In this document: positions 1,253-57,546 of the stretch, piece after piece | Numbering within the stretch: the first letter of the stretch is position 1 | How the letters are laid out: each line of letters opens with the position of its first letter | Assembly (NCBI GenBank): GCA_963798485.1 | Contig: CAWCTR010000014.1 | Span: 1 to 64,000 of the forward strand | DNA length: 64,000 nucleotides | Source: an uncultured delta proteobacterium | GTDB taxonomy: Bacteria; Desulfobacterota; Desulfomonilia; UBA1062 | Reading direction: 5' to 3' | Notes under the pieces: model-generated | The model's database searches: none | What the model was told of the DNA's origin: nothing | What the model saw: the letters and a program-made list of their open reading frames with translations, nothing else | Translations under genes and position numbers: made by a program

Positions 1253-4200
1253 TCACCGCTCACCCCATATGTTCACTTGCTGTTGAAGGAATTTAATGGC
1301 TGGGCCGATGTCATTGTATTTTTTTGACTTGTCCAGTAGTTCAGCGCTGACGAATGGTGTGAATACAGGTTCAGAAGGTTTCAACAACTCAATACCTTTC
1401 AAAGAGAAAAAATCGGTTACGAAGCCCGTCTCCACATTCGGGTAGAGCCGTCTGGTGATGCTGGAAAGCGGCGCCAGGATACTCTGCAACTCTTTTGTTA
1501 ACTTTGGCACAAGGAAACTGATTAGTCCGGCGAGGGCCAACTGAAATCTATTTTCTTCATTCGGACCCTTATTATTCACTCGCTGGCGCAATACATCAAT
1601 AATTATTTGGATTAGTGAACTCGACAAGGCACCCTTAAATGAATGGTTAGCCTCGAAACAACGCTCGTAATGAAGGGAGCATATATTCCATATGAGGAGG
1701 AAAAGAGGCTTGGTGCGTATTTTTGCACACACAGGAAGGTCTAAAATATTTTTAATTTCACCTAGAAGTCGATTCACATATTCCGTGCAAACCAACTCCG
1801 AGCGAGCAATGACGAGTACTAAACGCAACGAGCCCACTTCGCCTTCATCACGGGGCCAATCAACCGGATCCGGAAGAACTTTCCACAACCTTGTGGCTAA
1901 GGCCATCTGTAGATCAGGTCGTTCCCGCCATGCGAAAGAGAGGCGACTGATTGCCTCGTTAAAATTCAACACCTGCAGATCTTCCGGCTTTATGCCCTCT
2001 ATTCTTGGTTGCATAGCCGCCCGAAGAATTTGCCCTTCGAATGAATTCGGGTCCGTAGGTGGGCGACTGCGATTAAGAACTAACCATGTCGCATTAGTCG
2101 CTAGTTGCGCAGCCGTATCACGCAGGGCTTCCTGAAAAGTGATCCGGCTAGGCTCGGGATATGCGGCAATCTCCTCACTTGAAAATGTGCAAGCATCTAG
2201 GAAATTCCCGCGGGTGATAATTCCCCGCCAGTCATCAATACTCAGGCCTGAAGGGGTTTCCACCAGCATCTTCTTCGTTTCTGGACTCATAACGCGGGAA
2301 ATCTGGCTTAAACTATAAAGAGTACCAATCCCTATAAGTAATCGCCACCATTTATCAACTCCGAGTAGTCTCTCAAGTTTTTCCAATTGGTTGGGCCATC
2401 GGCTGAGTTGCTTCAGTGTGTGATGAAAATTTTCAATGGAGCGTCTAGCGGCAATTGCCTTGTCCACCAATGTAATTGTGTTTGCCTCGTCAAGCTGCCC
2501 CAGTAGACCATCTCTGAAGTTGGGGGTGGAACGTCTATATATGCCAAACAATTCGACCAACGTACCATTGGCTAGTATCAGGCGCAGATAGCGCTCGGCC
2601 CCAATGATTTGCTCTAAACGTGTTAATAGGTCTTTATCTGTATTGCCTAGATCGCGTAAGGCAAGGTCAAGGGTACCAATGGAGCGCCCAGCAGCGATGG
2701 TCTTGTCCACCAACACAGCTGTTTTGGTCTCGTCAAGCTGCCCCAAAAGAGCCTTTTTAAAGTCACGGGTGGTATATTGAAGGACGCGAAACAGCTCGAA
2801 TAAGGTGCCATTGGCAAGTATCAGGCGCAGATAGCGCTCGGCCCCAATGATTTGCTCTAAACGTGTTAATAGGTCTTTATCTGTATTGCCTAGATCGCGT
2901 AAGGCAAGGTCAAGGGTACCAATGGAGCGCCCAGCAGCGATGGTCTTGTCCACCAACGCCGCTGTTTTGGTCTCGTCAAGCTGCCCCAGTAGAGCCTCTT
3001 TGAAGTCGGGGGTAGTATGTTGAAGGATGTGAAACAATTCAACCAAAGTGCCATTGGCAAGGATCAGGCGCAGATAGCGCTCGGCACCAATGATCTGCTC
3101 TAAACGTGTTAATAGGTCTTTATCTGTATTGCCTAGATCGCGTAAGGTAAGGTCAAGGGTACGAATGGAGCGCCCAGCAGCGATGGTCCTGTCCACCAAC
3201 GCGGCTGTTTTGGTCTCGTCAAGCTGCTTCAGAAGAGCCTTTCTGAAGTTGAGGGTTGTGTATTGTAGGATGCGAAACAGATCAACCAAAGTACCATTGG
3301 CAAGTATTAGACGCAAGAAGCGTTCAGCCCCAATGATCTGCTCCAGACTTTCTAGAAGAGCCTCATTTGCCATACCCAGTTCACGTAAGGTAAGGTTAAG
3401 GGTTCCGATGGAGCACCCAGCAGCGATGGTCTTGTCCACCAACGCGTCTGTTTTGGTCTCGTCAAGCTGCTTCAGAAGAGCCCCTTTGAAGTTGAGGGTA
3501 GTATGTTGAAGGATGCGAAACAGATCAACCAAAGTGCCATTGGCAAGTATAAGACGCAGGAAGCGTTCAGCCCCAATGATCTGCTCCAAACTTTCTAGAA
3601 GAGCCTCATTTGCCATGCCCAGTTCACGTAAGGTAAGGTTAAAGGTTCCGATGGAGCACCCAGCAGCGATGGTCTTGTCCACCAACGCGGCTGTTTTGGT
3701 CTCGTCAAGCTGCTTCAGAAGAGCCTCTCTGAAATCGGGGGTAATATGTTGAAGGATATGAAACATCTTGAATAAAGTGCCAGTTGCAAGTATCAAGCGC
3801 AGATAGCGCTCGGCCCCAATGATCTGCTCTAAACGTGTTAATAGGTCTTTATCTGTATTGCCTAGCCCGCGTAAGGCATGGTCAAGGGTACCTAAAAAGC
3901 GTCCTGCAGCGATGGTCTTGTCCACCAACGCAGCTGTTTTGGCCTCGTCAAGCTGCCCCAATAGAGCCTCTTTGAAGTCGGGGGTAGTATATTGAAGGAT
4001 GTGACACAGCTCAACCAAAGTGCCATTGGCAACTATCAGGTTCAGGAAGCCCGTAGCTCCATACTTTTTTTGCACTGTTGTAAGGGTAGTGAGATCATAT
4101 CGAGCAAGGGTCATTAGCCCTGTGCCGATATCTATTATTGCAATACTGTCCGTGTAGTTGCGCGCATCCTTAAACAGCATATGGATACGACTCTCAATAA

Positions 4201-6139
4201 AGCTTGTGTATTGTTTTATTTGGGGATGAGACACACTGGAGAGGTTTATCAGGCAGTCTTTAAGTAGTGAGAACGAGCAATCCTGAAGGTGTTTCTCAAT
4301 ACTATTTCTAATAAATTCTTCGTCGAGTATCAGTGATTTAATCTGTGCTTCAGCCATACCACTCATCAGATGGAGGCGAATATTCAGAAGAAGCTCAATT
4401 GTCCGTATCATCAATGAATTGCTGGGCGTATCGTGCGTGATGGATCTTGCGAGGTGCTTAAGGTAATTAATAAGCTCTCTTGCTGTAATCGTGACTACGG
4501 CGTCCGCAACTCGACTAGGCACAATCTCCAAGGCAAGCAAGGATCTAAAGATCAACTCTGCGATGGAGGAGTGAAGGAACTGATAACGATGTGGGCTGAA
4601 CAGTTCTGTCATGAACGGTTTTGCCCGGTTTTTCTCCCCAGGCTGCCAGCCATCTTTTAGATATGATGCTAATGGTGTCAGCTCAAATTGAGCCAGACAG
4701 GCCAACCGCTGAATAGTTGGAAGCTGGACATTTCCTCCGAAATATTGTGATCGTACAGAATTATAGAAGCGTTCATGACTTATGTTATCCAGTTCCTGGG
4801 GAGAGCCGATACCCTGTAAAATCTCATCCAGCAACAACAGATCTCCTCCTGTGATATGGTGGAGACGTTCACGCCTTTGTCTAGAAAGACCGGTGAAATC
4901 TGGCCGGAGATGTACTGTTACTGCATAGGTTCGTGCCGGGTCGGTTTTCATGTCCATTACCAATCCGTCCTGTTCAAGTTGCAACAGCCAATCCGGTGTA
5001 TCGACCAAATTTTCAGAACTGGAACTCGGCAAATCACGTAATACTAATACCAGCTTCACCAATCCCTTGGAATCTGACAATTCGGGATGAAGACGCTGCA
5101 ATAGCATACCAGTCTGTTCCAGATTCAGGTGGCAGTCGTCTAGGAGCAGCAAAGTTGGAAGGCTTTTGCGACGCTTGAGTGATTGCCAGAGTTGGGAAAA
5201 CTCGGGTTTGTCTTTGAATGTGGCGTAATAAATCCTTCGAATTGGGATTCGGAGCCTGCATGCCAGTTCCAGGCCGGTAAATGTTTTACCAGAACCGGGT
5301 AACCCACGGATTGCCAGGACTGAAGAGGTCGATAGAATTTCTTGGAAAAGCTCCTCATCCGATTCCATAACATTGATTCTCTCGTTTTGGTGCCTTTCAA
5401 AAAATCGCATAATGGGTGCATGGCGAGTTTCGCCCCAACTTACCCTAGTCCAGGGGGTGTCCAGCCAGTCGTAACGGTTACAGAAGTGCTCAGCATAAGA
5501 TCCTGAGAATAAACTCGCTACAATATCAGGTAAGCGCTGTAGGCGGGTGTCCAGGGCATGCTTATCCCAGTAGTTGACATTCACTCCGGTGCGTTGAATG
5601 AATTCATCCTTGAATCGTGTCCATTTCTCACCCCATTTTTGGTCATCTAGCGGGTGAGGGCAGCAGTACACGAAGGCATCGGGATGAGGTAGTCCAGCCT
5701 TGTCCAACCAGTCAATCTCGAACTTAGTGACCGCATCGCGGACATCGGTCCAAGAAGGCATAGCCGTCAGGTTTTTGCATTGATAGACCGTGCGAGTGCC
5801 ATCGGTCTCTACGACGATATCGACACCGTAGTCCGGTTGGCCGCTACGGCCAAAGAAGCGTGGTGAGTGACCCTCAGCGACGAGTAGCTCATAACAAAGA
5901 CGTTCAAAGCCAGCACCCATGAGCTTTGCATAAGGTAGATCAGCCAAATTCGCGACACTCGGTTCTACTCCCATATCAGAGGCGAGAGGATCAACCCTGT
6001 TCCAGATTTCGTTTGGAGAAAGCAGGGTCAATGGAGTATCAGCCAAAGTGTTGTTCATTATATGTCCTGTAAGATAACTACTGGCCAATTTGGATTTATG
6101 GATTCGGTTGGTCCTATTTTCCCAGGGATAAGGAGTCAT
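1253..6139 (-). CDS. NLR/STAND-like protein: Mrr-like PD-(D/E)xK nuclease + P-loop NTPase + tandem 81-aa helical repeats (putative anti-phage/Avs-like)
   Basis: FERLC..L...G....GRSGQPDYGVDI...VYQCK nuclease motif; Walker A GLPGSGKT; Walker B LLLLDD; 7 tandem repeats. The ORF is open to 6157; ATG 6139 has a purine-rich RBS, and a later start is possible. Confidence 0.8.
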   Translation of the reverse strand: MTPYPWENRTNRIHKSKLASSYLTGHIMNNTLADTPLTLLSPNEIWNRVDPLASDMGVEPSVANLADLPYAKLMGAGFERLCYELLVAEGHSPRFFGRSGQPDYGVDIVVETDGTRTVYQCKNLTAMPSWTDVRDAVTKFEIDWLDKAGLPHPDAFVYCCPHPLDDQKWGEKWTRFKDEFIQRTGVNVNYWDKHALDTRLQRLPDIVASLFSGSYAEHFCNRYDWLDTPWTRVSWGETRHAPIMRFFERHQNERINVMESDEELFQEILSTSSVLAIRGLPGSGKTFTGLELACRLRIPIRRIYYATFKDKPEFSQLWQSLKRRKSLPTLLLLDDCHLNLEQTGMLLQRLHPELSDSKGLVKLVLVLRDLPSSSSENLVDTPDWLLQLEQDGLVMDMKTDPARTYAVTVHLRPDFTGLSRQRRERLHHITGGDLLLLDEILQGIGSPQELDNISHERFYNSVRSQYFGGNVQLPTIQRLACLAQFELTPLASYLKDGWQPGEKNRAKPFMTELFSPHRYQFLHSSIAELIFRSLLALEIVPSRVADAVVTITARELINYLKHLARSITHDTPSNSLMIRTIELLLNIRLHLMSGMAEAQIKSLILDEEFIRNSIEKHLQDCSFSLLKDCLINLSSVSHPQIKQYTSFIESRIHMLFKDARNYTDSIAIIDIGTGLMTLARYDLTTLTTVQKKYGATGFLNLIVANGTLVELCHILQYTTPDFKEALLGQLDEAKTAALVDKTIAAGRFLGTLDHALRGLGNTDKDLLTRLEQIIGAERYLRLILATGTLFKMFHILQHITPDFREALLKQLDETKTAALVDKTIAAGCSIGTFNLTLRELGMANEALLESLEQIIGAERFLRLILANGTLVDLFRILQHTTLNFKGALLKQLDETKTDALVDKTIAAGCSIGTLNLTLRELGMANEALLESLEQIIGAERFLRLILANGTLVDLFRILQYTTLNFRKALLKQLDETKTAALVDRTIAAGRSIRTLDLTLRDLGNTDKDLLTRLEQIIGAERYLRLILANGTLVELFHILQHTTPDFKEALLGQLDETKTAALVDKTIAAGRSIGTLDLALRDLGNTDKDLLTRLEQIIGAERYLRLILANGTLFELFRVLQYTTRDFKKALLGQLDETKTAVLVDKTIAAGRSIGTLDLALRDLGNTDKDLLTRLEQIIGAERYLRLILANGTLVELFGIYRRSTPNFRDGLLGQLDEANTITLVDKAIAARRSIENFHHTLKQLSRWPNQLEKLERLLGVDKWWRLLIGIGTLYSLSQISRVMSPETKKMLVETPSGLSIDDWRGIITRGNFLDACTFSSEEIAAYPEPSRITFQEALRDTAAQLATNATWLVLNRSRPPTDPNSFEGQILRAAMQPRIEGIKPEDLQVLNFNEAISRLSFAWRERPDLQMALATRLWKVLPDPVDWPRDEGEVGSLRLVLVIARSELVCTEYVNRLLGEIKNILDLPVCAKIRTKPLFLLIWNICSLHYERCFEANHSFKGALSSSLIQIIIDVLRQRVNNKGPNEENRFQLALAGLISFLVPKLTKELQSILAPLSSITRRLYPNVETGFVTDFFSLKGIELLKPSEPVFTPFVSAELLDKSKKYNDIGPAIKFLQQQVNIWGER
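2340..4039 (-). repeat. Intragenic tandem array of 243-bp (81-aa) repeats: 6 conserved units and 1 diverged unit
   Basis: ggcgcagatagcgctcgg recurs at 2581, 2824 and 3067 (period 243). The protein unit is LILANGTL...LVDKTIAAG...LEQIIGAERYLR. Confidence 0.95.
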
Positions 6140-6657
6140 CTGCGACCCCCCCTTCACCCCATACCATAAATGGCCAATATAGTTCTAAGAAAGTGTTCTT
6201 TTATAACTGAATACTATTATACAACTTCTAACATTTATAAATCAAAATCTTCTTATTGAAGATAATTGTAGCAGGTCAGTTTGAAAACAATGAGAATATG
6301 AATGCCATTGCCGGGATATAATTCGCCAGGAGAGACTGGATAAAGGCAGGCGATGACAGATACGATCCCTATATCAAGGATGGCATCGGACAAATTGCAT
6401 ATACCGTTATCTAAGGTCAGCTTGCATTGAATATCCCCACTGGAGATCTCAGCAAGAGATTATGATGCCCAGAATACAGAGATCTATAAGAGATGCAAGA
6501 TCCTACATAATCACAAATCGCACGATCTGTACGATCACATTAAAACTAGTGCAGTTTCATCGAATGATCTGATCTCAACTTTTACAAATTAATAATGCTG
6601 AATCGCGACGAAAACAAAATTTCTTTTCTACAAACTCACCCTAGCCAACCACCAATT

Positions 6658-8517
6658 TCATTCCCCTGCCTGTGCAAGTCTTTCCTCAAATTCCGCCTGG
6701 TGCTTCTCAAGCAGGGGATGCATTTCCTCGAGCTCGGCAAAGTTTGCTTCAATAGCTTGTTCACTTTCCAGGATGGCATGGGAGATCTCAAAGATCTTTT
6801 TCCCATCCTTACTCATCGTTGCATTCTGTATCTGCGCATGCAGTTCTTTGAGGATATTCTCATGCCGCTCAATTTCGGCTTCAGCCTTGGCTATCCTTTT
6901 TTCGATAGGGCTCAACACCTTGGAACGTTCAGTGATGATCTCAGAGCGTTTCTTTCTCAATTCCTTCTTATTTATCTTGCCTTCTGCCGGATCTGACCTT
7001 ACTTCCCTTTTTGCAATCGGCTGGATTATCTCTTCATCTTCCCAGCCGCCCTTATCGAGAAATCGCTGATATCCGCCTTCAAAGATCTCGATAGAATCAT
7101 GGTAGAATATAATGAGCCTTTCGGCCAGGGCATGGAGGAACATCTCATTATGGGTAACCATAACCACTGCCCCGTCAAAGCTATCAAGGGCCGCAAGCAG
7201 GGCATCGCTGGTCTCCATGTCAAGGTGGTTGGTTGGTTCGTCAAGCAGCAGGAGATTCACCGGTGTCACTAAAAGTTTGCCCAGCATCACCCTGCTCTTC
7301 TCTCCGCCGGAGAGCACCTCTACCTTTTTTAAAGCAGAATCACCCTCGAACATTATGGCACCGCATATGTTGCGGACAGACTGCCTGTCAAGATCCACGC
7401 CTGCATAAAATATTTCATCCTCAACTGTTCGTGAATCAACAAGGGTTGTCATGTTCGTCTGCTCATAAACGCCCTTTATCGTTTTAGGATTGTAGGTGAT
7501 CTCACCCTTATTGGGGTCTAGCTGACCTGCCAACAATCTCAGCAGGGTTGTCTTCCCTTTCCCATTTGGTCCGATGATGCAAACCTTTTCTCCTGGACGT
7601 ATAACAATATTGAAGTCCTTTATGAGTTCGATTTCCGGGTTGTAGGAAAAAGATAGATCGTTGGCCTGTTGTGCGTATTTTGCATAGAAGGGTGTGCCAC
7701 GGAAAGAGAATTCCAATGTCTTGATTTTTTCCAGTTTCTCTTTCCTTTCCGTCTTACCAAGTAGCTTTATCCTTGATTGAACAAGCCCTACCAACCGGGC
7801 CTTGGCCCTGAAACGGGCTATGAACTCTTCAACCTCCTTGCGTTTGCGATCATCATTGAGGCGCGTCTTTTCATATATCTCTTCTTCCTGGGCTATCTGA
7901 TTATAGAACTTCTCGGTGTCTCCTTCTATCTTGCGCATCTTTCTGCGGTGGATACCCATGGTGTGTGTGACTATCCTATCCATAAAGGTCCGATCATGGG
8001 TAATAAGGATCAGCTCTCGCGGCCATGTATTGAGGAAGCGCTCTATCCAGCGGATGGAAGTAATGTCCAGGTAGTTGGTAGGCTCGTCCAAAAGAAGAAG
8101 GTCCGGATCCGATACAAGGACCTTTGCCAGATTGAGTCTCACCTGGAAGCCGCCGGAAAACTCGCTTGGGTGGCGTTCCATGTCGTGTACGGAGAAACCG
8201 AGCCCGGCCAGGACCTTTTCCACCTTCCAGTGCTGCTCTTTTTGGGTTTCAGAGAGGCCTTTCATACCCTCTTTGAGTACATTATCCTGTGTAAATCCAA
8301 GCTGCTGAGTAACATAGCCTATACGATAATTTTTAGGTATGAGAATGGATCCGGCATCAGGCTCATCTTCTCCGGTTATTAGACGGAGCAACGTAGTCTT
8401 ACCATGGCCATTGCGGCCCACGAGCCCCACACGTTCTTTCGGATTTATCTTGAAGCTGATCCCCTCAAAGAGCACCTGGGGTCCATAGCTCTTCCAGAGA
8501 TTATCTATGCTGATCAT
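6658..8517 (-). CDS. ABC-F family ATP-binding protein (YheS/Uup-like)
   Basis: Two ABC domains (GRNGHGKT, FSGG, LLLDEPTN; GPNGKGKT, LSGGE, LLLDEPTNH), no TM segments, C-terminal coiled coil. Confidence 0.92.
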   Translation of the reverse strand: MISIDNLWKSYGPQVLFEGISFKINPKERVGLVGRNGHGKTTLLRLITGEDEPDAGSILIPKNYRIGYVTQQLGFTQDNVLKEGMKGLSETQKEQHWKVEKVLAGLGFSVHDMERHPSEFSGGFQVRLNLAKVLVSDPDLLLLDEPTNYLDITSIRWIERFLNTWPRELILITHDRTFMDRIVTHTMGIHRRKMRKIEGDTEKFYNQIAQEEEIYEKTRLNDDRKRKEVEEFIARFRAKARLVGLVQSRIKLLGKTERKEKLEKIKTLEFSFRGTPFYAKYAQQANDLSFSYNPEIELIKDFNIVIRPGEKVCIIGPNGKGKTTLLRLLAGQLDPNKGEITYNPKTIKGVYEQTNMTTLVDSRTVEDEIFYAGVDLDRQSVRNICGAIMFEGDSALKKVEVLSGGEKSRVMLGKLLVTPVNLLLLDEPTNHLDMETSDALLAALDSFDGAVVMVTHNEMFLHALAERLIIFYHDSIEIFEGGYQRFLDKGGWEDEEIIQPIAKREVRSDPAEGKINKKELRKKRSEIITERSKVLSPIEKRIAKAEAEIERHENILKELHAQIQNATMSKDGKKIFEISHAILESEQAIEANFAELEEMHPLLEKHQAEFEERLAQAGE

Positions 8518-8578
8518 GCGCCTAGATTATATAAACATCGCCTTGCGTCAAGCGCGATCTGCCTACTATAATAAAATG

Positions 8579-9148
8579 CTATTTACAAGAATATCCGACC
8601 AGTACTTGTATGCCATCATGTCCTACAATAACACCCCGTCCACTAAAGTAAATAAGGACCCCTGCCCCCCATTCCAGTTCCAACGGGTACTCCGGATCAT
8701 CGCATGCAGCTTTATAACCCCTTCCAATATCACTTGGGGGAATTCCAATATAGGAATTATCTAAAAACCAGCTTGCATGACGATTAGGATCTGAAGGCTG
8801 CCCTTTTATCAACCATGACGGAAATGCCTTTGCAAAACTGTGATCTTGGCATCGGATAGCCTTTAATTTGGCCCTAATATTTTCTGTGTGAGTTCCATGA
8901 CGATTTTTGGCTAAATAGTTGGAGTAACCGATGACCGTACCATCTTCCTTTGCATTTTCGTAAAAAAATGTTTCCAGTCTTATTTGGGCTTGCTCAGAGA
9001 ATGGGCTGTTCGGATGTTTCTGTAAATAATACTGATATGCCTTTACCGTATCAATATTGCGGGCCTCTTCCCAATCAATATTTGTTGTTGAGCAGCCCAT
9101 GGATGCAAAAAGAATAACCAAGATTAGATTCCATCTTAGAATTGACAA
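8579..9148 (-). CDS. Lipoprotein, hypothetical
   Basis: Lipobox SMG-C; two short helical motifs (AYQYYLQKHPNS, GYSNYLAKNRHG). Confidence 0.7.
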   Translation of the reverse strand: MSILRWNLILVILFASMGCSTTNIDWEEARNIDTVKAYQYYLQKHPNSPFSEQAQIRLETFFYENAKEDGTVIGYSNYLAKNRHGTHTENIRAKLKAIRCQDHSFAKAFPSWLIKGQPSDPNRHASWFLDNSYIGIPPSDIGRGYKAACDDPEYPLELEWGAGVLIYFSGRGVIVGHDGIQVLVGYSCK

Positions 9149-9236
9149 CTTATATGACCTCCATGCTCAATACTTCATTATACATCTATTCGGTGAAAAG
9201 GACAATTCCCTGAGAACGATATTACAAAAAAAATCT

Positions 9237-10361
9237 TTATCTCAACGCAATCTGCAATATGGGCCATTTCTTGTCCATATCTTCCGGGCAGCTGATACAT
9301 CTAAAGATCCGAGTCCTGAGATTGGAAAAAATAAGGTTATGTAGCCTTAATGAACGAACATGCAAATGATGTCTTATGGTTTTCTCAAATTTCTTTCTAT
9401 TACCTTCAGTCCACCCACCTGAGTGCATAACGTCAGCAGCAAGCGACCCTTCTGCATAGCCGATAAGAAAAGATGTCTTTATGCCGCTACCGCCTCTTGC
9501 CTGGACGTGACCTAGTGCATCTCCCGCCATAACAAGGCCTTGTCGTGGGGAGAAGGGGAAGAGCATCCCCCCCATAGGGATGCATGTCTCCAGCTCATAA
9601 AAGCTCTGAGTCTTGTCCAATAGCTTCCCGAATTCTGGATGAAAATGACTGAACTCATCAAAGGACGGTTGAACGTGGTTTCCCCTCGAGGTGTCAAGTA
9701 GTATGAACTCAGCCTCACCTCCTCCACGTGGGAACATAGTCCCAACTAAAATCCCTGTGGGTTTGATATGGAAATGATACTCAAGCTGTCTTTCCTGGCC
9801 GGTATATCCTCTCACAAGACGTTTTGTTACAGCCATATCAATGCCGCTACGATCCTGTCTTATGTGATGCGAAGCAGTATCATGGCAGCCTCCACAAGAA
9901 ATAACAGTGTCTGCCAGTAACTCTTCTGCAACACCGTTCTTAGATGCCATTACTCCACTGACTCTTCCCGACTGTTCAATAAGTTCGGTGACATGGAGGC
10001 CTGTAAGGAACCTTACTCCTGAGTTTCCTGCCTGGCTTACCATCTCGTTGATAAGGTCAGGCCATGAAAAAATGATATTGGGATTTTTTATCACACGTTC
10101 TTTTTGGCATTTGCCGGTATGAGAGAAGTATCTACGCTGGTGTACCTTTCTGATAGCTATATGTTCGAAGAAACCATGACCGAGTATCTCTTCCATATGC
10201 ATATCTGCACGAATGGTCTCTCCTCTGCGGACCGAGCCCAATTTTTCCTGCTGCTCAATAACCGTAACGGCAATCCCCTTACGGGCAAGGCCTATGGAAG
10301 CACCCAGACCAGCAGGGCCTGCCCCGATAATAACTGTATTTAAGTTTGAGGTGGCGTTCAT
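9237..10361 (-). CDS. FAD-dependent oxidoreductase, geranylgeranyl-reductase-like
   Basis: IIGAGPAG Rossmann motif; GDALG...GGSGI second FAD motif. Confidence 0.8.
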   Translation of the reverse strand: MNATSNLNTVIIGAGPAGLGASIGLARKGIAVTVIEQQEKLGSVRRGETIRADMHMEEILGHGFFEHIAIRKVHQRRYFSHTGKCQKERVIKNPNIIFSWPDLINEMVSQAGNSGVRFLTGLHVTELIEQSGRVSGVMASKNGVAEELLADTVISCGGCHDTASHHIRQDRSGIDMAVTKRLVRGYTGQERQLEYHFHIKPTGILVGTMFPRGGGEAEFILLDTSRGNHVQPSFDEFSHFHPEFGKLLDKTQSFYELETCIPMGGMLFPFSPRQGLVMAGDALGHVQARGGSGIKTSFLIGYAEGSLAADVMHSGGWTEGNRKKFEKTIRHHLHVRSLRLHNLIFSNLRTRIFRCISCPEDMDKKWPILQIALR

Positions 10362-10374
10362 CTTCTCATCAGCC

Positions 10375-11466
10375 TCACCTATGACTTGCCAGCCAATTCT
10401 CAGAGCTTACAGCCTTTTTCAGGAGGGTCTTGAAGTGATCGAGACAGTTCATACGAATAAACTCATCCAGATCTTTGTAATCGGTTGAGATTGGCAATAC
10501 AGAAGCTGTTAATTCTAATTTATTAATCAGGCTTATTGCAGTACGAGTGGCATCAATTTGCCGTTCACTGCCGCCAAGTGCGAGTATGAAATGCCTTGTC
10601 CCTAAAAAGGCGGCTGTCTCTATCTGCCCGGCTTTCACCCCGCCTGTCCCAATACCGATGACAGGCTTCAATCTGGCATGGTCCAGGAGCAAGGCATCAA
10701 AGAATCCTTCTACTACAATGACCTCTTCCCGGCCCCGTGACCGGTACATGAGAAACGGTATGTCATTAAGACATGAAAAGTCGGTCAGCATACTGTAGGA
10801 GGCAGAACCATTGGCCCTGACATCCTTGTGTATCAGTCCCATGAGCCGCCCTGATGCATCTCTATATGGAATGGCAAGTCCTGGGTAATCAGGACCGCTT
10901 TCCCATATCTTGGAAAGTGCGACCTCAAGAGTGGCCTGGTTAAAATCCTGTTTGAGAAGGTCTTGCATTGTTTTGGTAAAACCGGGGTAATAACCAAGAG
11001 ACATTCCCTCGACTTCAGCCATGGCGTATCCACGGGTATAGAGATATTTAAGGACTTCCTCTCCGGGCTTTGACCATAATTGTGTGATGAATAGATCCAT
11101 GGCAGACACGAGGACCCTGGTCCGGAACAGTTCAATCTCCCATTGTTCTTCACTATAATCTCTGATGGATATTCCACAAGCACGTTCAAGTATGTTTAAT
11201 GCATCATGAAAAGAAAGACCTTCCTTTTGCCTGAGGTATTTAATCCAATCTCCCCGTTCACCACAAACAAAGCAGAAATATTCGGGTCTGTCGCCATAAA
11301 TAAGGAAGGTGGGTAACAAATCTTTATGGAAGGGGCAGCATGAAATAAAGCCGGTCCCTTTTCGCTGGAACAACCCAAGCCCACCGAAGAGCGTGTGCTG
11401 GTATTCTCTATTAATCAGGGTTGCATACATCTTCTCGATTGATGACAGCATCGTAATCCTTTTCAA
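10375..11466 (-). CDS. DnaG-like protein (CHC2 zinc finger + Toprim), probably catalytically degenerate
   Basis: CPFH...CFVC zinc finger and VVEGFFD Toprim motif are present. The DxD motif is replaced by LGGS and there is no C-terminal helicase-binding domain. Confidence 0.75.
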   Translation of the reverse strand: MKRITMLSSIEKMYATLINREYQHTLFGGLGLFQRKGTGFISCCPFHKDLLPTFLIYGDRPEYFCFVCGERGDWIKYLRQKEGLSFHDALNILERACGISIRDYSEEQWEIELFRTRVLVSAMDLFITQLWSKPGEEVLKYLYTRGYAMAEVEGMSLGYYPGFTKTMQDLLKQDFNQATLEVALSKIWESGPDYPGLAIPYRDASGRLMGLIHKDVRANGSASYSMLTDFSCLNDIPFLMYRSRGREEVIVVEGFFDALLLDHARLKPVIGIGTGGVKAGQIETAAFLGTRHFILALGGSERQIDATRTAISLINKLELTASVLPISTDYKDLDEFIRMNCLDHFKTLLKKAVSSENWLASHR

Positions 11467-11472
11467 AGAATT

Positions 11473-14400
11473 CTATTTCTCCATTCCCACCACGATTGTC
11501 CTCATACCAGGGCTTGCCACTGCGTGGTTAATATCAAGAAGATCTGCGTACTTATCAGGCATTACAAGCCCGGGCTTGATGTCGCTTAGTTGCTCAATCA
11601 TAATACCCATCCGCCCCTTAGGGTTGGACTCTTGATTCGGCGGTACTATTCTCGTTGACAGTGTCAATACGCTGGAACCCGGTAATTGAAACACTTTCAT
11701 CTCGGGCGGACTCAGTTCGATAGACTTTGCACCTTCGGGCAAAAGGACTTCGATCTTTGTATACTGTTTTAAAAAGGAGTCCCTGTACAGGGGATTTAAT
11801 CTCTCATCACTGGCCACACCCGCAATGGCCCTGGTGATGCCGGGAAGCTCAAGATAAAGGAGATCGCCCTGGCGGACTGCATAACTGGGCACTGAAACGA
11901 TGAATTCTTCAGTGGCCGGGTAAGTAATGCACGATACATTATAGGGGCTCACGGCAATAGCTGACCTGCTCACAGAAGATACGATATCCTGGAATCGCCT
12001 CCTGCGTTCCTCAGGCGACATCTCAAGGTAATCCTTGCAGAACATAGCATGCCCGGTTCCATAATAGTTTTTTTGATATGTGATAATGGCATCACCTGAA
12101 GGACTCAGGTCAATGGTAATGTTTGTCTCAGCCTTGTCCTCAAATTTCTGACTGGATGCCTGGATTGTCTCGAACTTACCTGATGACACATTCAGGGCAT
12201 TATTGCCAAAGGATGCTACCGTGCCGAGCGCTGCATACTGGTCCGTATCGCCTAAAATGATCTGTCCTTGCGGTGACGAGACCCTTACCAATACTGAGAT
12301 GAACCATGCGGCTGCGGTATGTTTTAAAAGAGGCCCCTGCAGGGATTGAAGAGGTGATACCGACGATTTCAGGATAAATTGTGGTTTTAAACCGACTGCC
12401 TTTAGCATGGCAGCCATAAGCACGGCACGGTCACTGCTGTTTCCGTACCCTGCAGCAAGGGTGGCATCTGCAGGGCTGATCCAGGTTAAGGGAAGCTGTG
12501 AGAATGGTATGTCCACCCCCTTGGTATTCTTTGCAACGTAATCCCTAATTGCAATGATCTTCCCTTCACTTGAGGAAATGTCTCTTGTTATGGTTAATGC
12601 CTTATTCCCTGCCAACTTCTGAAGAGAAGATGCCTTTTCAAACACACCAAGGACCACCTTGGCATATTCTTTCACCTCTGCTGTTGAGGCAAAAACCGAA
12701 GGCATATAACTATATCCGGGCGGCAGAAAGTCCTCATGTTTTATGGGTGGCACGCGATTTACGCTATATTCGAAAATGGCCTTGTCCCCTTGAGACCTTT
12801 TTGTCTCTTTAATGAAACCTTCTGGGAAAGGCTTCCATCCAGCATCAGAATAAAACCCATTGTCTGCCTTGGAAATGGTCAGTTCCATGCCGGATGGAAC
12901 ACTTATATGCAGCTGTTTATTCTCGATGGGGTCCTCACCTTGGAATTGACTTTCTATAAGGAATGGCCATGCATCTTTTTTACTAATGACATACTCGTAC
13001 TCAATAATACTGCCTTCCTGCAACCCGGGCAGACTCACCACCTTGACCTTGCCTGCCGGATAGCGTGGCGCCTTGCCGACCCATTCCTGGTCCATAACAT
13101 TGACTTCATTCGTGTTGATCTGTTTTGTCTGGCCGTCAGGCGAGGTCACGGAGGCCTTTTTTATCTGGATATCTTCCCACACGGGGTTAAAGGAAAAATA
13201 CAGTTCGGAGTGATCCTTTTTGCCCGCATAGGTCAAGACCTTGATCTTCTTTCTTATTGTCTGAATAATGGTGGCTTTATCGATGATATCCGTTGAGATA
13301 TCTTCATCAAGTACCACTGCATCAGGATTATATCCGGCATACCATGGCTTGCCGGATGCACTTGCCGAGAAACGGCCCAGTGCAAAAACCGGCATAAAGC
13401 GGTTTGCCTTCTCAACCTTCTTGAGGGTATCCTGAAGGCGCTTATATTGTTCAGGGGAATACTCGGTGAGCTTCATTATGAAGAGGTTCTTGCCTTTCAT
13501 GACCCCATCCCCTACTTCAAGGGACCTGAACCATGATGACCCTTCATCAACGGCTGATTCCTTAACCGGATTGCTCAGGGGTTTGCCCAGGGACCGGTCG
13601 ATGTCGATGTTCACGGTTTCGTCAATACCGCAGGCCATCTCGGTCATGAAGGTATACTTCCTCTCCTTAAGACCCATTCCTCCGATAAGGTTGTTTACCA
13701 CCCCTATGCTGTCACCAAATCTGAAGAACGGCAGCATAGTCACATCAGCGCTATGAACAGGATAATCTTTTGCGGAATATGCAAAGCTCGCCTGCAAAGG
13801 TTGCGAGGTATCCATCATATCCTCAGGTTTTATTATGAGCTCATCAAGGACGGCACCTGGCATCACCTTCATGAGCATCCTCTCGAAGTATAGTCTTCGT
13901 TCATCTTCAGATATCCTGGAGAAGTATCCTCTGTAGGCATTATCATTGATGCCATCGAAGGTGAGCGTGGTCTTACCACTTAATGTACCTGCTGAATTGA
14001 GTTTGCCTGAGGTAACTATGTGAAGCATGTTCTTATCCGCTGGCGTGATGGCACTCGTCCGGAGTGTATCGCCCTTTGGCGTTGCTACAAGGTAGCTCTG
14101 ATTGTTGAGGTATGCCGGGAACAACTCCTTGGTGTTCTCGTTTGTGGGGTCCATAAGCTGATAAGAGCCATCCTTGTCCTTTATGCAGACTATGGCATGG
14201 TTGAAGAATGGCTGTGGCACCTCAGGGTCTTTTTTCGGTCCGTTCATTATAAGGACCGGATAGGCCTTGAACCCTGCAATCCTCAACATGGCAACAAGCA
14301 GCGCTGCCTTATCGCGGCATACCCCTGCCCTGCGTTCAAAGGTCATGGACACGGCATGCGGTTCATAGCCGGGGGCCTCTGTTTCAGCTGTAATGCCAAG

Positions 14401-21393: not shown

Positions 21394-24102
21394 TTGATTA
21401 ATGCCATAAGGTTTTATATTTATATTATATTAATATTATGTTCTGCTTTCCTATTCACGGGAAGAGTATCCGCCGAAGAATGGGAATGGCAGAATCCACT
21501 TCCACAGGGTAACAATCTGAATGCCGTCTTAAGCATCTCAAATAATGATGTTTATGCTGTTGGGTACAATGGGACTATTATGCACTATGACGGCAATATC
21601 TGGGAAAGCATGCCCAGCGGGACCACGAATAACCTTTGCTCTATCTGGGGTATCACAAGCAACAATCTCTTCGCTGTAGGATACAATGGCACAATACTGC
21701 ATTATGATGGCAAAACCTGGGAAACCATGTCCAGTTGCACCATAAATTACCTCTGGGGAGTATGGGGTTCTTCAAACAATGACGTTTATGCTGTCGGATA
21801 TAACGGTATTATCCTTCATTATAATGGCACTGCATGGACAAATATGAACAGTGGGACAACTAGGACCTTGAGAAATATATGGGGAACATCTGTCAATAAT
21901 GTATATGTGGTTGGATATGATGGTACTATTCTCCATTTTGACGGGGCTACGTGGATTACCATGCCTACCAACGCACATAAAGATCTGTTAGGGATCTGGG
22001 GAAGCTCTGACCGAGATATCTTTGCTGTTGGTTATGATGGCACAATTATTCATTTTGATGGCAACTCATGGAACACCATGAATAGTGGGGTAAGGAAGGA
22101 TCTTCTGTGTATCTGGGGAAACTCAGCAAACGATATCTATGCAGTTGGAGATGCAAGTACGATCCTGCATTATGACGGCAACACATGGACCACTATGAAT
22201 AGTGATAGGATATCAAATCTTTATAGTATTTCTGGCAATGCAGATAGCAGTGTCTTTGCCGTAGGCGCTGGAGGCACGATCTTACGCTATGAGAATAATA
22301 CATGGGCCTCAATGACAAATGGCAAAAAAACTAATTTGTTGGGAGTGTTAGGAAACTCAAAAGATGTCATCCTTGCCGTTGGCGATGATGGTACTGTCTT
22401 GAAGTATGATGGCAATTCATGGAACTCCATGGATACAGGATCGAATAGTGCTCTGAACAGTGCCTGGATCAGTCCTGACAACGATATCTTTGCCGTTGGA
22501 TATAATGGCATGATAATGCACTACACACCCGGCATATGGAGCACAATGGAAAGTGGAACGACCTCCACCCTTATGGGAATTTGGGGGGCCTCATCGAATG
22601 ATATTTTTACAGTAGGTTCCAATGGTTTGATCTTACATTATGATGGCAGCATATGGAACTCGATAAACAGCAATACGACATCTAACCTTAATAGTATTTG
22701 GGGAACATCGAGCAGTGACCTGTTCGCTGTTGGAGAACATGGGACCATTCTTCATTTTAACGGTACCGCTTGGACCAAAATGTCAGAAAGTATTGACAAG
22801 ACTTTTGTTGACAAAACTTTGATGAGAATCTGGGGTACCTCAGCAACTGATGTTTATGCAGTCGGAGAATCAGGAACAATCCTCCACTATGACGGGAAAT
22901 CCTGGAACACCATGAACAGCGAGACATCCTCTCTCCTCAATGGAGTATGGGGAACTTCAGGCAGTGATGTTTATATCGTTGGTGAATTGGGGACAGTCCT
23001 ACACTATGATGGCAGCACATGGAGTAACATGAATAAGGGGACGAATAATTCTCTCAGCATGATTTGGGGAAGCTCACCAACCAATATCTTTGCAGTAGGA
23101 GATGCAGGGACAATTCTTCACTATAATAAAAATAATGGAGAAACACAGGCATCATTACCTTCATCGATTTCAAAACCTGATGTTTCCGTTTCTACGACAG
23201 CTCTCCCCTACGAAACCGCCCCCTTGTCACTCGCAGACAACTCGAAAGGGTCCTCATTTTCTTTAGAGAAAATTCCCAATACTGGAGCAACACTTACTCC
23301 AAATATACAGAATCAAACATCCAGCAATCCTGAATCTAAAACCGAGACCTTACCCGTTATGGAGCAATCAGATCCTGGCGCTAAAAACAAACTTGCTTCT
23401 GCCTCAGTCTCGCTGCCTCACCAGGATTATGCAGACGACAAGGACATGACAAAAATTGATAGTTCGAAAGATAGCAATGCAGGTATTGAGCCGGTTACAA
23501 TACAAGACGCACAACCTTCAAAAACCGGTGACACCATCGACCAGACTGCAACCAGCAAACTTACAATCCATGCAGAAGAGGAAACATTACCTTCCAAGAT
23601 GCATATCTCTCAGTCACCAACAGCAGAAGCTGAAAACAATCACGACGATAGCACCCCATTGAAAACTGGTATCGAAAATAATGAATCAGTCCCGATTATC
23701 TCTCAATCAAATCAGTTGAGTACCGATGACGTCCAGGAAGCCGGTGATAGAAGCAACATCACAACCGATATCTCAACATCTAAAAAAGCCCTTGATGTCT
23801 CCTTGCCTTCACCGAAGCAGATTAAAGTCCCTTTAGCTTCATACATACTTGCAAGTAATGACGGTAGTGCTCATCATGTCCTTGAAAATGGCATGTTCCC
23901 CTACAGCACAGGAACGATAAAGAAAAACAACGAATCATTGCCTAATAGTAATGTAGTTAAGAGGGAAGAAGGTGAAAAAGTCAGTTCTCAAGCTGCTTAT
24001 GCTTTGTATAATTATTTCTTCCATTTTATACCCCTCTTTGTTTTTATGTGTATCTTGTTTATCAGCATTTTCAATCTGTACAGAAGACGCATGAGCGATT
24101 GA
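21394..24102 (+). CDS. Membrane-anchored surface protein with 14 x 39-aa beta-propeller-like repeats and an S/T/P-rich stalk
   Basis: Signal peptide; repeat L..IWG.S..DVYAVG..GTILHYDG..W x14; about 290-aa low-complexity region; C-terminal TM helix followed by RRR. Confidence 0.85.
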   Translation: MINAIRFYIYIILILCSAFLFTGRVSAEEWEWQNPLPQGNNLNAVLSISNNDVYAVGYNGTIMHYDGNIWESMPSGTTNNLCSIWGITSNNLFAVGYNGTILHYDGKTWETMSSCTINYLWGVWGSSNNDVYAVGYNGIILHYNGTAWTNMNSGTTRTLRNIWGTSVNNVYVVGYDGTILHFDGATWITMPTNAHKDLLGIWGSSDRDIFAVGYDGTIIHFDGNSWNTMNSGVRKDLLCIWGNSANDIYAVGDASTILHYDGNTWTTMNSDRISNLYSISGNADSSVFAVGAGGTILRYENNTWASMTNGKKTNLLGVLGNSKDVILAVGDDGTVLKYDGNSWNSMDTGSNSALNSAWISPDNDIFAVGYNGMIMHYTPGIWSTMESGTTSTLMGIWGASSNDIFTVGSNGLILHYDGSIWNSINSNTTSNLNSIWGTSSSDLFAVGEHGTILHFNGTAWTKMSESIDKTFVDKTLMRIWGTSATDVYAVGESGTILHYDGKSWNTMNSETSSLLNGVWGTSGSDVYIVGELGTVLHYDGSTWSNMNKGTNNSLSMIWGSSPTNIFAVGDAGTILHYNKNNGETQASLPSSISKPDVSVSTTALPYETAPLSLADNSKGSSFSLEKIPNTGATLTPNIQNQTSSNPESKTETLPVMEQSDPGAKNKLASASVSLPHQDYADDKDMTKIDSSKDSNAGIEPVTIQDAQPSKTGDTIDQTATSKLTIHAEEETLPSKMHISQSPTAEAENNHDDSTPLKTGIENNESVPIISQSNQLSTDDVQEAGDRSNITTDISTSKKALDVSLPSPKQIKVPLASYILASNDGSAHHVLENGMFPYSTGTIKKNNESLPNSNVVKREEGEKVSSQAAYALYNYFFHFIPLFVFMCILFISIFNLYRRRMSD

Positions 24103-25079: not shown

Positions 25080-26543
25080 CTGGAGTTTCCTGAGTTTTCA
25101 AATTAACCCCACTCACTCCAGGAAGCTGAAGCACAGTTGGAACTCGGGATATTTTGGTTTTGCCGTCTTGTTGAATCCGGTTTTATCGGAGAAGAGGAGC
25201 TTATAGAGCCCATCAGCGATGGCATAATTGAAAAAGGTGGGGATGCCGAAGAACCTCTTGGATACGATATACACTCTCTCAACCAGCATTTTGAGTCTCA
25301 GGTTATCCCCTAAATATACTGCCGCGAAATAGCTGACGGCAAGGACAAGGACCACCATGTTCCGGATACTGGTGTAATGGCGCACCCGGATATCTTCAAG
25401 ATTGTAGCACTGCTTGATGTACCTGAAGGATTCATCGCATTTCCAGCGGGTGAGGTATATCTCAATGATTCTCCAGATGGTCTCGCGGTCCTTCAGGTGA
25501 ACCGGGCAGCTTGTCAAAAGCATCATCGGCTCCTTGCCGAACCCTTTCGCCACCACGAGAAACAACGGAGCATCATGGCCGGGTAGTTTCACCACCACGG
25601 CATTGTAGAAAACGCTTGCCTGGCGTTCTTTCCCTTCCTCATACTTGATCATGACCGCTTCATGCGGACAGGGCAAGGCCGTGGCAAGAAAGTGACAATT
25701 CTTTTTGACGCCTTTATGGATGAGATCTCTGTTCTTCTTAAGACGGATCACAAACCGCTTCGCCTTCCCCTTTTCAAGAAATTTGTCATAGAGCTTACCC
25801 CTGTCCCCTCCGCGGTCGATGGCATAGATACCTTTGCTCCCCACATGGGCGCTCACGGTGTCGATCACTTTGAAGAGCTGATCGTTCTCGCTCTTGAAAT
25901 CCTCGGCTTCCTGCGAATATGCCTCCAGGTACAACGGTATCACCTTCTTATGCTCAATGTCCGCGGCCACTCCTTTGCAGAGCCAGTACCCCTCACCAAT
26001 CTCATGTTCACTTCCATCATGTACCTTGCAGAGACACTCCATCTTCGAGGCATACTTCTTACGGATATCTCCAGGATCTATGGCTATCACCATATCATCA
26101 AGCACCTTCGTGCTCCCAAGGCGGCATATCTCATGGTTGATCGCATCCGTAAAATCCCGATCATCCAGATTCCTCGATAACCGGTCCTCCGTCTTGATCA
26201 GGGGTATGGCCTCATTCAGGCTACGACTCACACTGGACAACTTGATATCCTTCCCGGCCTGTATCCCATACACCATCTCTCGAATGAGCTTCTGCTTCGA
26301 CTTGGGTAATCCCTTGGAAATGATTCCTGAGAATCTCGTTATCTGCCCTTTTATATCCGCTGCTATCCTGGAGTTCCCGGCCATATCGTCTCCATCTCCT
26401 GTATGTGAGCTACTTTCTACCATATCAGCCGGTGAATCTCAGGAATCTTTTACGCTTAGACGTTGTTATCTTGATAAAATAAGCTTCTTACTTTATTTCA
26501 ATAGGTTATCTACTGTTCAGTGATAAAACTCAGGAAACTCCAG
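25080..26543 (-). mobile_element. IS4-family insertion sequence, copy 1 (1464 bp)
   Basis: Terminal IRs CTGGAGTTTCCTGAGTTTT / AAAACTCAGGAAACTCCAG; direct repeat GATGATGTAA at 25070-25079 and 26544-26553. Confidence 0.93.
25113..26423 (-). CDS. IS4-family DDE transposase
   Basis: IAID, AIDRGGD and the Y.TRWKCDESFRYIK (YREK-like) signature; the true start may be the second Met (MAGNSR). Confidence 0.9.
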   Translation of the reverse strand: MVESSSHTGDGDDMAGNSRIAADIKGQITRFSGIISKGLPKSKQKLIREMVYGIQAGKDIKLSSVSRSLNEAIPLIKTEDRLSRNLDDRDFTDAINHEICRLGSTKVLDDMVIAIDPGDIRKKYASKMECLCKVHDGSEHEIGEGYWLCKGVAADIEHKKVIPLYLEAYSQEAEDFKSENDQLFKVIDTVSAHVGSKGIYAIDRGGDRGKLYDKFLEKGKAKRFVIRLKKNRDLIHKGVKKNCHFLATALPCPHEAVMIKYEEGKERQASVFYNAVVVKLPGHDAPLFLVVAKGFGKEPMMLLTSCPVHLKDRETIWRIIEIYLTRWKCDESFRYIKQCYNLEDIRVRHYTSIRNMVVLVLAVSYFAAVYLGDNLRLKMLVERVYIVSKRFFGIPTFFNYAIADGLYKLLFSDKTGFNKTAKPKYPEFQLCFSFLE

Positions 26544-26676
26544 GATGATGTAACGATTGCTATAAGAAATACAAGATTACAGAACATCACAAATTACACA
26601 AGCCGTACGAGAGCATCTTCACTACTGTAGCTCTATTGTATGATCAGACCTCAACTATTCTACTATATATTTCAGC

Positions 26677-29095: not shown

Positions 29096-29162
29096 ATCTG
29101 CCCCCTCATATATTGTTATTCTTGATATGGCATGAAAGTTCCTATCCCTCAATGACTATGTA

Positions 29163-29975: not shown

Positions 29976-30012
29976 ATCTGTCTCCCTATCGTTATGGTGT
30001 CGTTAAATAATT

Positions 30013-31323: not shown

Positions 31324-31333
31324 ATGTCACTCC

Positions 31334-32968: not shown

Positions 32969-32990
32969 TACCTATCCTCCCGCCTGCACA

Positions 32991-37512: not shown

Positions 37513-37519
37513 GGGCCGG

Positions 37520-40490: not shown

Positions 40491-40503
40491 ACATGATACC
40501 TCC

Positions 40504-41646: not shown

Positions 41647-41649
41647 TTC

Positions 41650-57021: not shown

Positions 57022-57546
57022 ACTAATTGATCCCGTTAAATCTATATTGTAAGCTATATATTAACACGAATGTTTATCTAAGGATACGTGATTTCATGTA
57101 AGTGTACAAAACATACATGGGTCTACCACTTTGATAATTGCTGTATCTAAGCATAATATCCAATTACTAAGATCTTATTGGGTATTAATGCGGAGATTGT
57201 TGCTTTAAACGTTGATTGGATATCGGGCATTTTTATAGCCCAAAAATGTTACCCTATGGATTCGGGATTCACTGGGTCTCTTTTATATTTCATCCATATC
57301 ACAAAACCATTGATAACTTCGATAAAGTGCGCCACGAAGGCGCGGAGAGGTAGTCAGAAAAAACTACATTGGAGCAGCCATGCTGCATGGAAAATGAGGG
57401 GGAGGCCCCTCGGGATCGGGGTACAGGATCAGATTCCAAACCGCCTGGCGCTGCGTGGGGATAAGATCCCAGGTGGTGAGCGGTCCAGGAAAAGGCGAGG
57501 CAAGACCTCGTCACCCATTAAAAGGTTCTGTCAATGAGAAAGGTTC

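Follow-up and report, generated by a model that had tools for sequence, protein, structure and literature searches.

The window analysed here is a stretch of 64,000 nucleotides from an uncultured delta proteobacterium (Desulfobacterota; contig CAWCTR010000014.1, positions 1 to 64,000 of the forward strand), and it carries on its minus strand a gene whose product contains a tandem array of 81-amino-acid repeats. This array is probably the central repeat arm of a single-gene STAND protein, NLR-like and Avs-like, and an arm that evolves by recombination between its units. The domain order of the protein is a predicted Mrr-type nuclease, a predicted nSTAND3-type NTPase, a linker, the repeat array and a conserved helical C-terminal domain. 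The initial annotation had proposed a bacterial analogue of fungal NLRs with a shufflable recognition surface; the position of the array inside a STAND protein, its predicted α-solenoid fold and its mosaic structure agree with that proposal, but a selected specificity code is not shown by the data. The features of the gene, ordered along the protein, are the following (aa, amino acids; nt, nucleotides).

1253..6157, minus strand: whole gene, STAND/NLR-like on one polypeptide (open reading frame list, translation)
5453..5980, minus strand: N-terminal domain, probable Mrr-type PD-(D/E)xK nuclease, aa ~60-235 (invariant columns; Pfam Mrr_cat in relatives)
4478..5410, minus strand: STAND P-loop NTPase with helical arms, aa ~250-560 (motifs, Pfam nSTAND3 in relatives, Foldseek)
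4046..4477, minus strand: helical linker, aa 561-704 (helices of the model; linker hidden Markov model, HMM, present in most full-length relatives)
3803-4045, minus strand: unit 1, aa 705-785, second half of type A (unit alignment)
3560-3802, minus strand: unit 2, aa 786-866, second half of type B (unit alignment)
3317-3559, minus strand: unit 3, aa 867-947, second half of type B; first 69 nt like unit 4, remainder like unit 2 (alignment, maximum chi-square)
3074-3316, minus strand: unit 4, aa 948-1028, mosaic, like unit 3 to nt ~114 and like unit 5 from nt 145 (alignment, maximum chi-square)
2831-3073, minus strand: unit 5, aa 1029-1109, type A, the same as unit 6 from nt 117 on (unit alignment)
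2588-2830, minus strand: unit 6, aa 1110-1190, type A (unit alignment)
2345-2587, minus strand: unit 7, aa 1191-1271, degenerate and terminal (unit alignment)
1256..2344, minus strand: all-helical conserved C-terminal domain, aa 1272-1634 (~360 aa), which follows the array in most full-length relatives

The whole protein (P0001; 1,634 aa, GTG start as listed) is encoded by a single minus-strand open reading frame (ORF) at 1253-6157, and a database copy of the same protein (P0002; 1,628 aa) starts 6 codons downstream. The units were cut at the recurring L(R/N)LI(L/V)A(N/T)GTL motif of the protein, which divides the array into seven in-frame units of 81 aa (243 nt) that occupy aa 705-1271, or 1,701 nt at window positions 2345-4045 on the minus strand. 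Tandem Repeats Finder (TRF) reports one array at 2434-4040, with a period of 243, 6.6 copies, 84% matches and 0 indels. Units 1-6 are 76.5-92.2% identical to one another in DNA and 65-91% in protein (mean ~78% aa), and unit 7 shares ~58% of its DNA and 44-48% of its protein sequence with the other units. No further copy of the 81-aa repeat is present in the 64-kb window beyond the array. The amino-acid strings quoted in the initial annotation are all present as written in the unit alignment. The plus-strand ORFs that overlie the array (3090-3509 and 3513-3752) are repeats of each other; they look as antisense shadows should, and nothing supports them.

For aa 600-1634, AlphaFold2 with 25 relatives in the input gives an all-helical model with a mean predicted local distance difference test score (pLDDT) of 90. 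Six helices are modelled in each unit: A (positions 78-81 and 1-7), B (10-19), C (22-30), D (34-47), E (54-64) and F (66-76). In the model, each unit consists of two three-helix ARM-like halves of ~40 aa, and the units stack into an α-solenoid. The earlier suggestion that every unit is built of two related ~40-aa halves is supported by the 3+3 helices of the model, but the sequence support for it is weak (hhalign of family profiles, half against half: P=0.026 over 20 columns, offset 44). Foldseek searches of the PDB with the solenoid and C-terminal domain return generic HEAT/ARM proteins only (karyopherins, CAND1; template modelling (TM) scores 0.1-0.25), and no specific relative was found. 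The Pfam ARM and HEAT repeat models do not match P0001; weak Pfam matches within the family are to MgtE_N (2/28 members) and FliG_C (1/28).

Recombination within the array is indicated by the distribution of sites among units. The second halves come in two types, as had been noticed from the letters alone, with units 1, 4, 5 and 6 set against units 2 and 3 by 22 parsimony-informative sites at nt 145-243. Unit 4 had been called a chimera on the same grounds, and here the maximum chi-square statistic reaches 25.4, a value attained by none of 2000 site permutations. Mosaic structure extends to unit 3, in which the switch from unit 4-like to unit 2-like sequence at nt 69 is likewise reached by 0/2000 permutations, and to unit 5 (permutation p=0.002); the seven triplets compared were picked by eye, not exhaustively, and 3/7 are not significant. 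The more than 130 bases said to be shared by units 5 and 6 correspond to an in-register identical run of 141 nt, composed of 127 nt within the unit and 14 nt of the next unit. Units 2 and 3 are 96-100% identical across nt 82-243. The search for breakpoints in units 4, 3 and 5 supports the description of the array as a recombinational mosaic.

The origin of unit 4 becomes clearer when the array is re-cut 120 nt out of phase. In this register, the segment formed by the second half of unit 2 and the first half of unit 3 is 94.2% identical to that formed by the second half of unit 3 and the first half of unit 4, which makes them the closest pair in any register. Because the most similar pair lies in the shifted register, the chimerism of unit 4 is attributed to an out-of-register tandem duplication. 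A single tandem duplication, or unequal crossover, with mid-unit boundaries accounts for it best, and a separate exchange between units 3 and 5 is not needed. The mapped breakpoints fall in the central and most conserved part of the unit (codons ~28-48, helix D). The proportion of synonymous differences (pS) is minimal in the same region (0.097 in helix D and 0 at codons 31-33, with 0.41-0.45 in helices A, B and F), so the mid-unit is the stretch most thoroughly homogenised and probably serves as the homology tract. The array evolves by homologous recombination of misaligned units in this conserved mid-unit. Through this process the helix B/C and helix E/F segments are re-assorted, giving mosaic units such as unit 4 together with gains and losses of whole units.

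Alleles give a more direct view of unit loss. Six clusters at 90% identity with more than one member were compared; the cluster of the window gene is one sequence, and its closest related genomic locus in a contig search is 55% identical, so that the allele results come from relatives. Repeat-number polymorphism, which the initial annotation had proposed to look for, was found in one of them and fits unequal crossover. The proteins P0020 (1,434 aa) and P0185 (1,515 aa) differ in length by exactly one 81-aa unit, and once the extra unit is removed, 1433/1434 residues are identical (99.9%). The sole differing residue is the one position that separates the second halves of units 4 and 5 in the longer allele; because it matches that junction, P0020 is the expected product of a crossover between unit 4 and unit 5. 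In cluster 3, a pair of substitutions that separates two alleles is present in each of two adjacent units, which are otherwise identical. In a third cluster, four alleles agree and the fifth has a double change, at unit positions 55 and 56. Across the four clusters of equal-length alleles, 11 of the 15 variant sites lie inside the arrays, with 4.3 expected (binomial p=0.0005, for sites that are not independent events).

A word-based search with aa 1-700 retrieved 37 proteins from many phyla (29-67% identical, the window's own record excepted), and all 37 contain the same repeat, as one to eight matched stretches. The repeat is rare, since a search of 1.84 billion representatives with a profile of 31 units yields only 164 proteins at E<=0.001, and it is essentially confined to this STAND family, with a copy number of 0-15. 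The full nuclease-STAND-linker-C-terminal layout is found in 65/172 proteins, with 0-8 units (one of them is the window's protein with another start). A few proteins retain the STAND domain and the repeats without the Mrr-like N-terminus. One of these, P0039 (1,995 aa), has the most units of the family, 15, with some pairs 100% identical; the conserved C-terminal domain, like the Mrr-like N-terminus, is not detected in it by HMM, and its Pfam matches are only spurious repeat matches.

High internal conservation recurs in this family: among 87 proteins with at least two units, 32 have a unit pair that is at least 80% identical and 16 a pair that is at least 90% identical. For all six of units 1-6 of P0001 the nearest unit is found in P0001 itself, and unit 7 is closest (62%) to a unit that ends the array of a different family member. 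The same arrangement holds among proteins that have at least three units: 47/78 internal units find their nearest neighbour within their own protein, and 22/30 last units find theirs in a different protein; 19 of these 22 neighbours are themselves last units. Internal units are thus homogenised per protein, and the terminal unit escapes and stays orthologous across proteins. A homogenised interior with a spared terminal unit is the classical signature of unequal crossing-over. The likeness to the evolution of shuffled repeats, suggested before from one array, is in this way extended by concerted evolution across a family whose unit copy number ranges from 0 to 15.

Both in the window and in 54 relatives, near-identical units differ mostly at hydrophilic residues, at positions 15, 18 and 19 on helix B and 55, 56 and 60 on helix E. 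The initial annotation had placed much of the variation in two short stretches, which map to helix B and to a loop with the start of helix E. This holds in so far as variable positions are enriched at 11-19 and 50-57 (14/17, against 37/81 overall; hypergeometric p=0.0007, a generous value for windows picked post hoc), and these windows hold 36% of the pairwise amino-acid differences where 21% are expected. However, variation is not confined to them, and positions 22-30 and 63-71 are equally variable. In the 54 other proteins, compared through unit pairs at least 65% identical, the most variable positions are 55 (72% of pairs), 18 and 15 (61% each), 19 (50%) and 60 (46%), all of them hydrophilic and all on helices B and E. 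The variability profile of the family correlates with that of the window's own array (Spearman rho 0.48, p=7e-6). Exposure of the variable residues was judged from helical periodicity and hydropathy. Certain polar positions are strongly conserved, with variabilities of 0.03 for E73, 0.11 for R49 and 0.12 for K43.

The assignment of the N-terminal modules relies on conserved residues, on matches of relatives and on predicted structure. The NTPase has a Walker A motif GLPGSGKT at aa 285-292 (window 5282-5305) and a Walker B motif LLLLDD at aa 336-341, ending in D340/D341; in an alignment of 28 sequences, residues G285, P287, G288, G290, K291 and D340 are invariant. In the same 28 sequences the nuclease domain has the invariant residues E85, D113, Q126 and K128, which fit a D...QxK active site of the Mrr type. 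Pfam nSTAND3 (PF20720) matches 22/28 family members at E<=0.01 (best 1.6e-8), and Mrr_cat (PF04471) matches 10/28 relatives (best E 8.4e-6). The model of aa 1-700 has a pLDDT of 84, and Foldseek relates it to SAMD9, Avs4, Avs3, Avs5 and NOD2 (E 3.5e-10 to 3e-6) and further to MalT and NLRP3, with all STAND matches within E 3.5e-10 to 1e-5; TM scores are low (0.2-0.34) across this multi-domain alignment. These matches support a NOD-type fold, in which a nucleotide-binding domain is joined to helical and winged-helix arms. A PDB profile search with the family alignment gave generic P-loop matches only (E>=0.0017). By eye, the end of the linker looks like the decayed second half of a unit. The C-terminal domain bears invariant W, R, E and D residues in the 28-sequence alignment, but it is not assigned to any family, and its search against the ESM Atlas gave a top score of 0.78, lower than what the tool itself treats as noise.

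By analogy with Avs proteins, the solenoid and the C-terminal domain would form the sensor. Binding of a phage or other foreign protein to this sensor may lead to NTPase-driven oligomerization, activation of the nuclease and abortive infection, and the number of units and the exposed residues of helices B and E might tune the choice of ligand. In the fullest version of this idea, the family would comprise previously undescribed Avs-like nuclease receptors with a cassette array of new 81-aa ARM-like double repeats. Recombination in the conserved mid-unit would re-deal the helix B/C and helix E/F cassettes and change the number of units, and about five exposed positions per unit (15, 18, 19, 55 and 60) would constitute a modular code through which the receptor is redirected against other phage proteins. 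We consider this version rather unlikely; such a modular code, if real, would bring the repeat shuffling of HET-E into prokaryotes.

Several observations weigh against the reading of the array as the recombining sensor arm of an Avs-like receptor, and they concern the domains, the genomic setting and the substitutions. At the level of domains, nSTAND3 scores 19.2 bits on P0001, below the cut-off of 27.2, and Mrr_cat gives no match to P0001 at E<=1. With the PADLOC-DB 2.0 HMMs the Avs models are unmatched, and only IetA, MkoA and PDC-M58A match weakly (E 0.0098-0.034, IetA 0.0098). The setting of the gene in the window is housekeeping and anaerobic metabolism, not a defence island, and no defence neighbour was found at eight of the 11 related loci scanned. 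In textbook ARM proteins the groove is lined by helices other than the middle ones, which would count against a binding role for helices B and E if these are the middle helices. Variability within proteins follows the entropy between proteins (rho 0.75), as plain relaxed constraint would make it do, and it also follows hydrophilicity (rho -0.48).

The codon data point the same way, with the qualification that the selection counts have low power and are not recombination-aware. Pairwise Nei-Gojobori ratios of non-synonymous to synonymous substitution rates (dN/dS, omega) are 0.18-0.47 among units 1-6 of the window. Omega in the window is 0.60 at the 21 family-defined variable (HV) positions, against 0.21 at the remainder. 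Minimum-change counts per codon, pooled over seven arrays, give a maximum omega of 0.93, with no codon above 1. For helix B, the ratio of non-synonymous to synonymous proportions (pN/pS) is 0.37 in the window, where pS is 0.41, and 0.14-0.43 in four arrays; pooled counts of non-synonymous to synonymous changes (N:S) are 37:31 (Fisher p=0.59), which is no non-synonymous excess. The amino-acid differences of helix B are accompanied by old synonymous divergence. For helix E, pN/pS ranges from 0.94 in the window and 1.21 in the array of locus L011 to 0.35 in L010 and 0.12 in L003, and it is 2.63 among units 1, 4, 5 and 6 (Sd 2, Nd 10); the pooled N:S is 42:24, against 162:160 for the rest (Fisher p=0.058). 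These values fit a combination of purifying selection on the core, near-neutral change on the exposed helix faces and recombination, and they do not show diversifying selection.

Positive selection thus found no support in the pairwise, HV versus non-HV, per-codon, per-helix and Fisher tests, in which omega exceeded 1 only for helix E in two small subsets.

One alternative is that the variation is a neutral by-product of the recombination. The solenoid would then be a spacer or scaffold, the C-terminal domain the true recognition module, and the differences between units the result of drift at exposed positions. The values of omega below 1 in the pairwise, HV-set and per-codon tests, together with the correlations of variability with entropy and hydrophilicity, are in line with this explanation. 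So are the range of 0-8 units among proteins whose N- and C-terminal modules are otherwise alike and the invariant W, R, E and D residues of the C-terminal domain. However, E73, R49 and K43 are conserved though polar, and positions 55, 18 and 15 vary in 61-72% of pairs, which makes the pattern position-specific. Moreover, allelic differences gather in the array at more than twice the expected number and include the double change at 55 and 56. On balance, a purely neutral origin is a possibility that we hold to be somewhat unlikely.

A second alternative, at the opposite end, is a strong regime of the HET-E type, with a few positions on two helices under diversifying selection and a repeat-by-repeat code re-dealt by shuffling. 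The recurrence of positions 55, 18, 15, 19 and 60 in 54 relatives would be expected from it, as would the helix E ratios of units 1, 4, 5 and 6 and of L011, the allelic double change, and the mosaic units that re-assort helix B/C with helix E/F. However, the pooled per-site maximum stays below 1, helix B shows no excess, and the N:S of helix E lies under the ~3:1 neutral expectation and is marginal against the rest; in two other arrays, L010 and L003, its pN/pS is well below 1. The possible specificity code that the initial annotation had suggested gained no support from the dN/dS check that it proposed: no site exceeds 1, helix B has no excess and helix E is near-neutral. Such a regime is unlikely.

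That an assembler mis-resolved near-identical repeats and so created the order, number or mosaic structure of the units is highly improbable: the contig ends and the frame-broken array described below, the 141 identical nt of units 5 and 6 and the near-identity of units 2 and 3 over nt 82-243 would suit an artefact of this kind, but the frame is intact over 1,701 nt with zero indels, no two units are the same (92% nt identity at most), a 507,721-nt contig is on record with this protein, similar arrays with a decayed terminal unit occur in dozens of independent assemblies, and the model is confident throughout.

Two observations on related loci concern assembly. At three of the 13 related loci (L005, L007 and L010) the homologue hits the contig end inside or right after the array, which suggests that these arrays often break short-read assemblies. 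In L006, from a metagenome-assembled genome (MAG) of Blastocatellia, the repeat region of the homologue at ~7000-13600 is broken up into six or more ORFs that overlap in different frames, and a unit-like stretch occurs in every one of them; TRF found no array in L006 despite these ORFs, and the region is either a decayed gene or a poor repeat assembly.

The array read as the recombining repeat arm of a STAND protein can be compared with several known systems. With Avs4 and Avs3, which carry an Mrr-like nuclease (PDB 8dgf and 8dgc), it shares a predicted nuclease effector, a STAND NTPase and a large α-helical repeat region, whose sensor role here is assigned by analogy, and Foldseek matches the N-terminal 700-aa model to both (E 8.4e-10 and 1.9e-7, respectively). 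In contrast to this structural likeness, there is no sequence-level match (PADLOC Avs models, PDB profile search), and the predicted sensor of the window protein consists of tandem near-identical 81-aa units followed by a separate conserved C-terminal domain. The sensors of Avs3 and Avs4 are divergent TPR-like repeats. A second comparison is with STAND proteins of the Avs5/SAMD9 type (SIR2-nSTAND3-repeat sensor), which have the same Pfam NTPase family and of which SAMD9 and EfAvs5 are among the top Foldseek matches. The predicted effector of the window protein is a nuclease, not SIR2, and its repeats are of another type, highly conserved internally. The NTPase of PaAvs5 is reported to be nSTAND3 (PF20720; 10.1101/2025.07.08.663546).

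The closest evolutionary parallel lies in fungi, where NLR repeats with high internal conservation (HIC) diversify through shuffling, as described in two reports (PMC4986451, PMC10197012). Units 1-6 count as HIC repeats, which are tandem repeats about 80-90% identical within a gene. The fungal HIC NLRs (HET-E, HET-D, NWD; WD, ANK or TPR repeats) share with the window protein a STAND domain joined to near-identical tandem repeats, concerted evolution, mosaic units, allelic repeat-number polymorphism (here in a relative) and variation focused on few positions per repeat. By contrast, the repeat fold is here an 81-aa six-helix ARM-like double repeat and the units resemble one another less (mean aa identity ~78%; fungal repeats ~85%). 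Positive selection, a defining result for the fungal repeats, was tested and not found here. Exchange between paralogues is not seen either, a second copy being absent from the window.

In bacteria, WD and TPR repeats of NLRs with 80-90% internal identity have been suggested to diversify as in fungi (Dyrka et al. 2020, preprint). The repeats considered there are WD/TPR repeats on NACHT/NB-ARC proteins of filamentous bacteria, unlike the undescribed repeat found here, which is joined to nSTAND3 and another effector; the present work also adds allele-level evidence of the loss of a unit by crossover. The literature searched yielded no paper that describes the 81-aa repeat, nor one on a family in which nSTAND3 and Mrr go with repeats conserved internally. 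In the supplementary files searched of a 2026 STAND survey, one family accession, nSTAND3 and Mrr were not found, which does not show absence, and its main text mentions nSTAND and Mrr once each. What was already known is the idea of repeat shuffling, Avs proteins with Mrr-like nucleases and Avs proteins with nSTAND3 NTPases; the repeat and the family are undescribed in the literature searched.

The immediate neighbours of the gene in the window encode an ABC-F ATPase, lipoproteins, a DnaG-type zinc-finger protein and a transglutaminase-like protein, and genes of the benzoyl-CoA-reductase/2-hydroxyacyl-CoA-dehydratase type are found farther off. Among the 13 related loci, 11 were scanned for their neighbours, and three of these (L003, L005 and L011) have defence- or phage-like genes nearby. 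In L003, from a Planctomycetota MAG, a 227-aa TIR gene of the CAP12/Pycsar type (2712-3395, plus strand; E 5.7e-34) overlaps the beginning of the homologue (ORF from 3392) by 4 nt, and the TIR gene and the STAND homologue may form a two-gene operon. In L005, from Ca. Thiodiazotropha endolucinida, genes for an IrrE/M78 peptidase, a 5-hmdU DNA kinase and a MazG C-terminal domain lie immediately upstream of the homologue (3015-6469, plus strand); these are phage-type DNA hypermodification genes. In L011, a Uma2 nuclease gene is located near the homologue.

Other parts of the window hold features of their own. A minus-strand cluster at 27128-42933 encodes an aldehyde:ferredoxin oxidoreductase, three BcrAD/BadFG-type ATPases and four HgdB/D-type dehydratase subunits, as well as a B12-binding protein, a URO-D-like methyltransferase and a CdhC-like protein; it suggests an anaerobic organism with an aromatic or hydroxyacyl-CoA metabolism. 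A 1,466-bp element occurs twice in opposite orientation, at ~25080-26545 (minus strand) and ~57545-59010 (plus strand), with 99.6% identity between the copies. Each copy has a 436-aa ORF without a Pfam match at E<=1e-6, and the element looks like an insertion sequence in two copies. Finally, a 902-aa ORF at 21394-24102 (plus strand) has an N-terminus resembling a signal sequence and some twelve copies of a 39-aa (117-nt) repeat with the pattern YAVGxxGTILHYDGxxW. It contains two TRF arrays at 69-73% matches, has no Pfam match, and is possibly an undescribed β-propeller-type repeat protein.

Bacterial STAND/Avs receptors are thought to recognize conserved phage protein folds through large helical sensors, and the question addressed by this array is how such sensors gain new specificities. 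The family is a tractable case, since it offers a short regular repeat, a confident model, natural alleles that differ by one unit and few recurrently variable positions. If the number of units or the variable positions set the range of triggers, the repeat shuffling of fungal NLRs would also operate in prokaryotic immunity, and the array would provide a scaffold that could be designed to retarget the receptor. Otherwise, the family would be a clean bacterial example of concerted evolution in a protein-coding tandem array that calls for no adaptive explanation.

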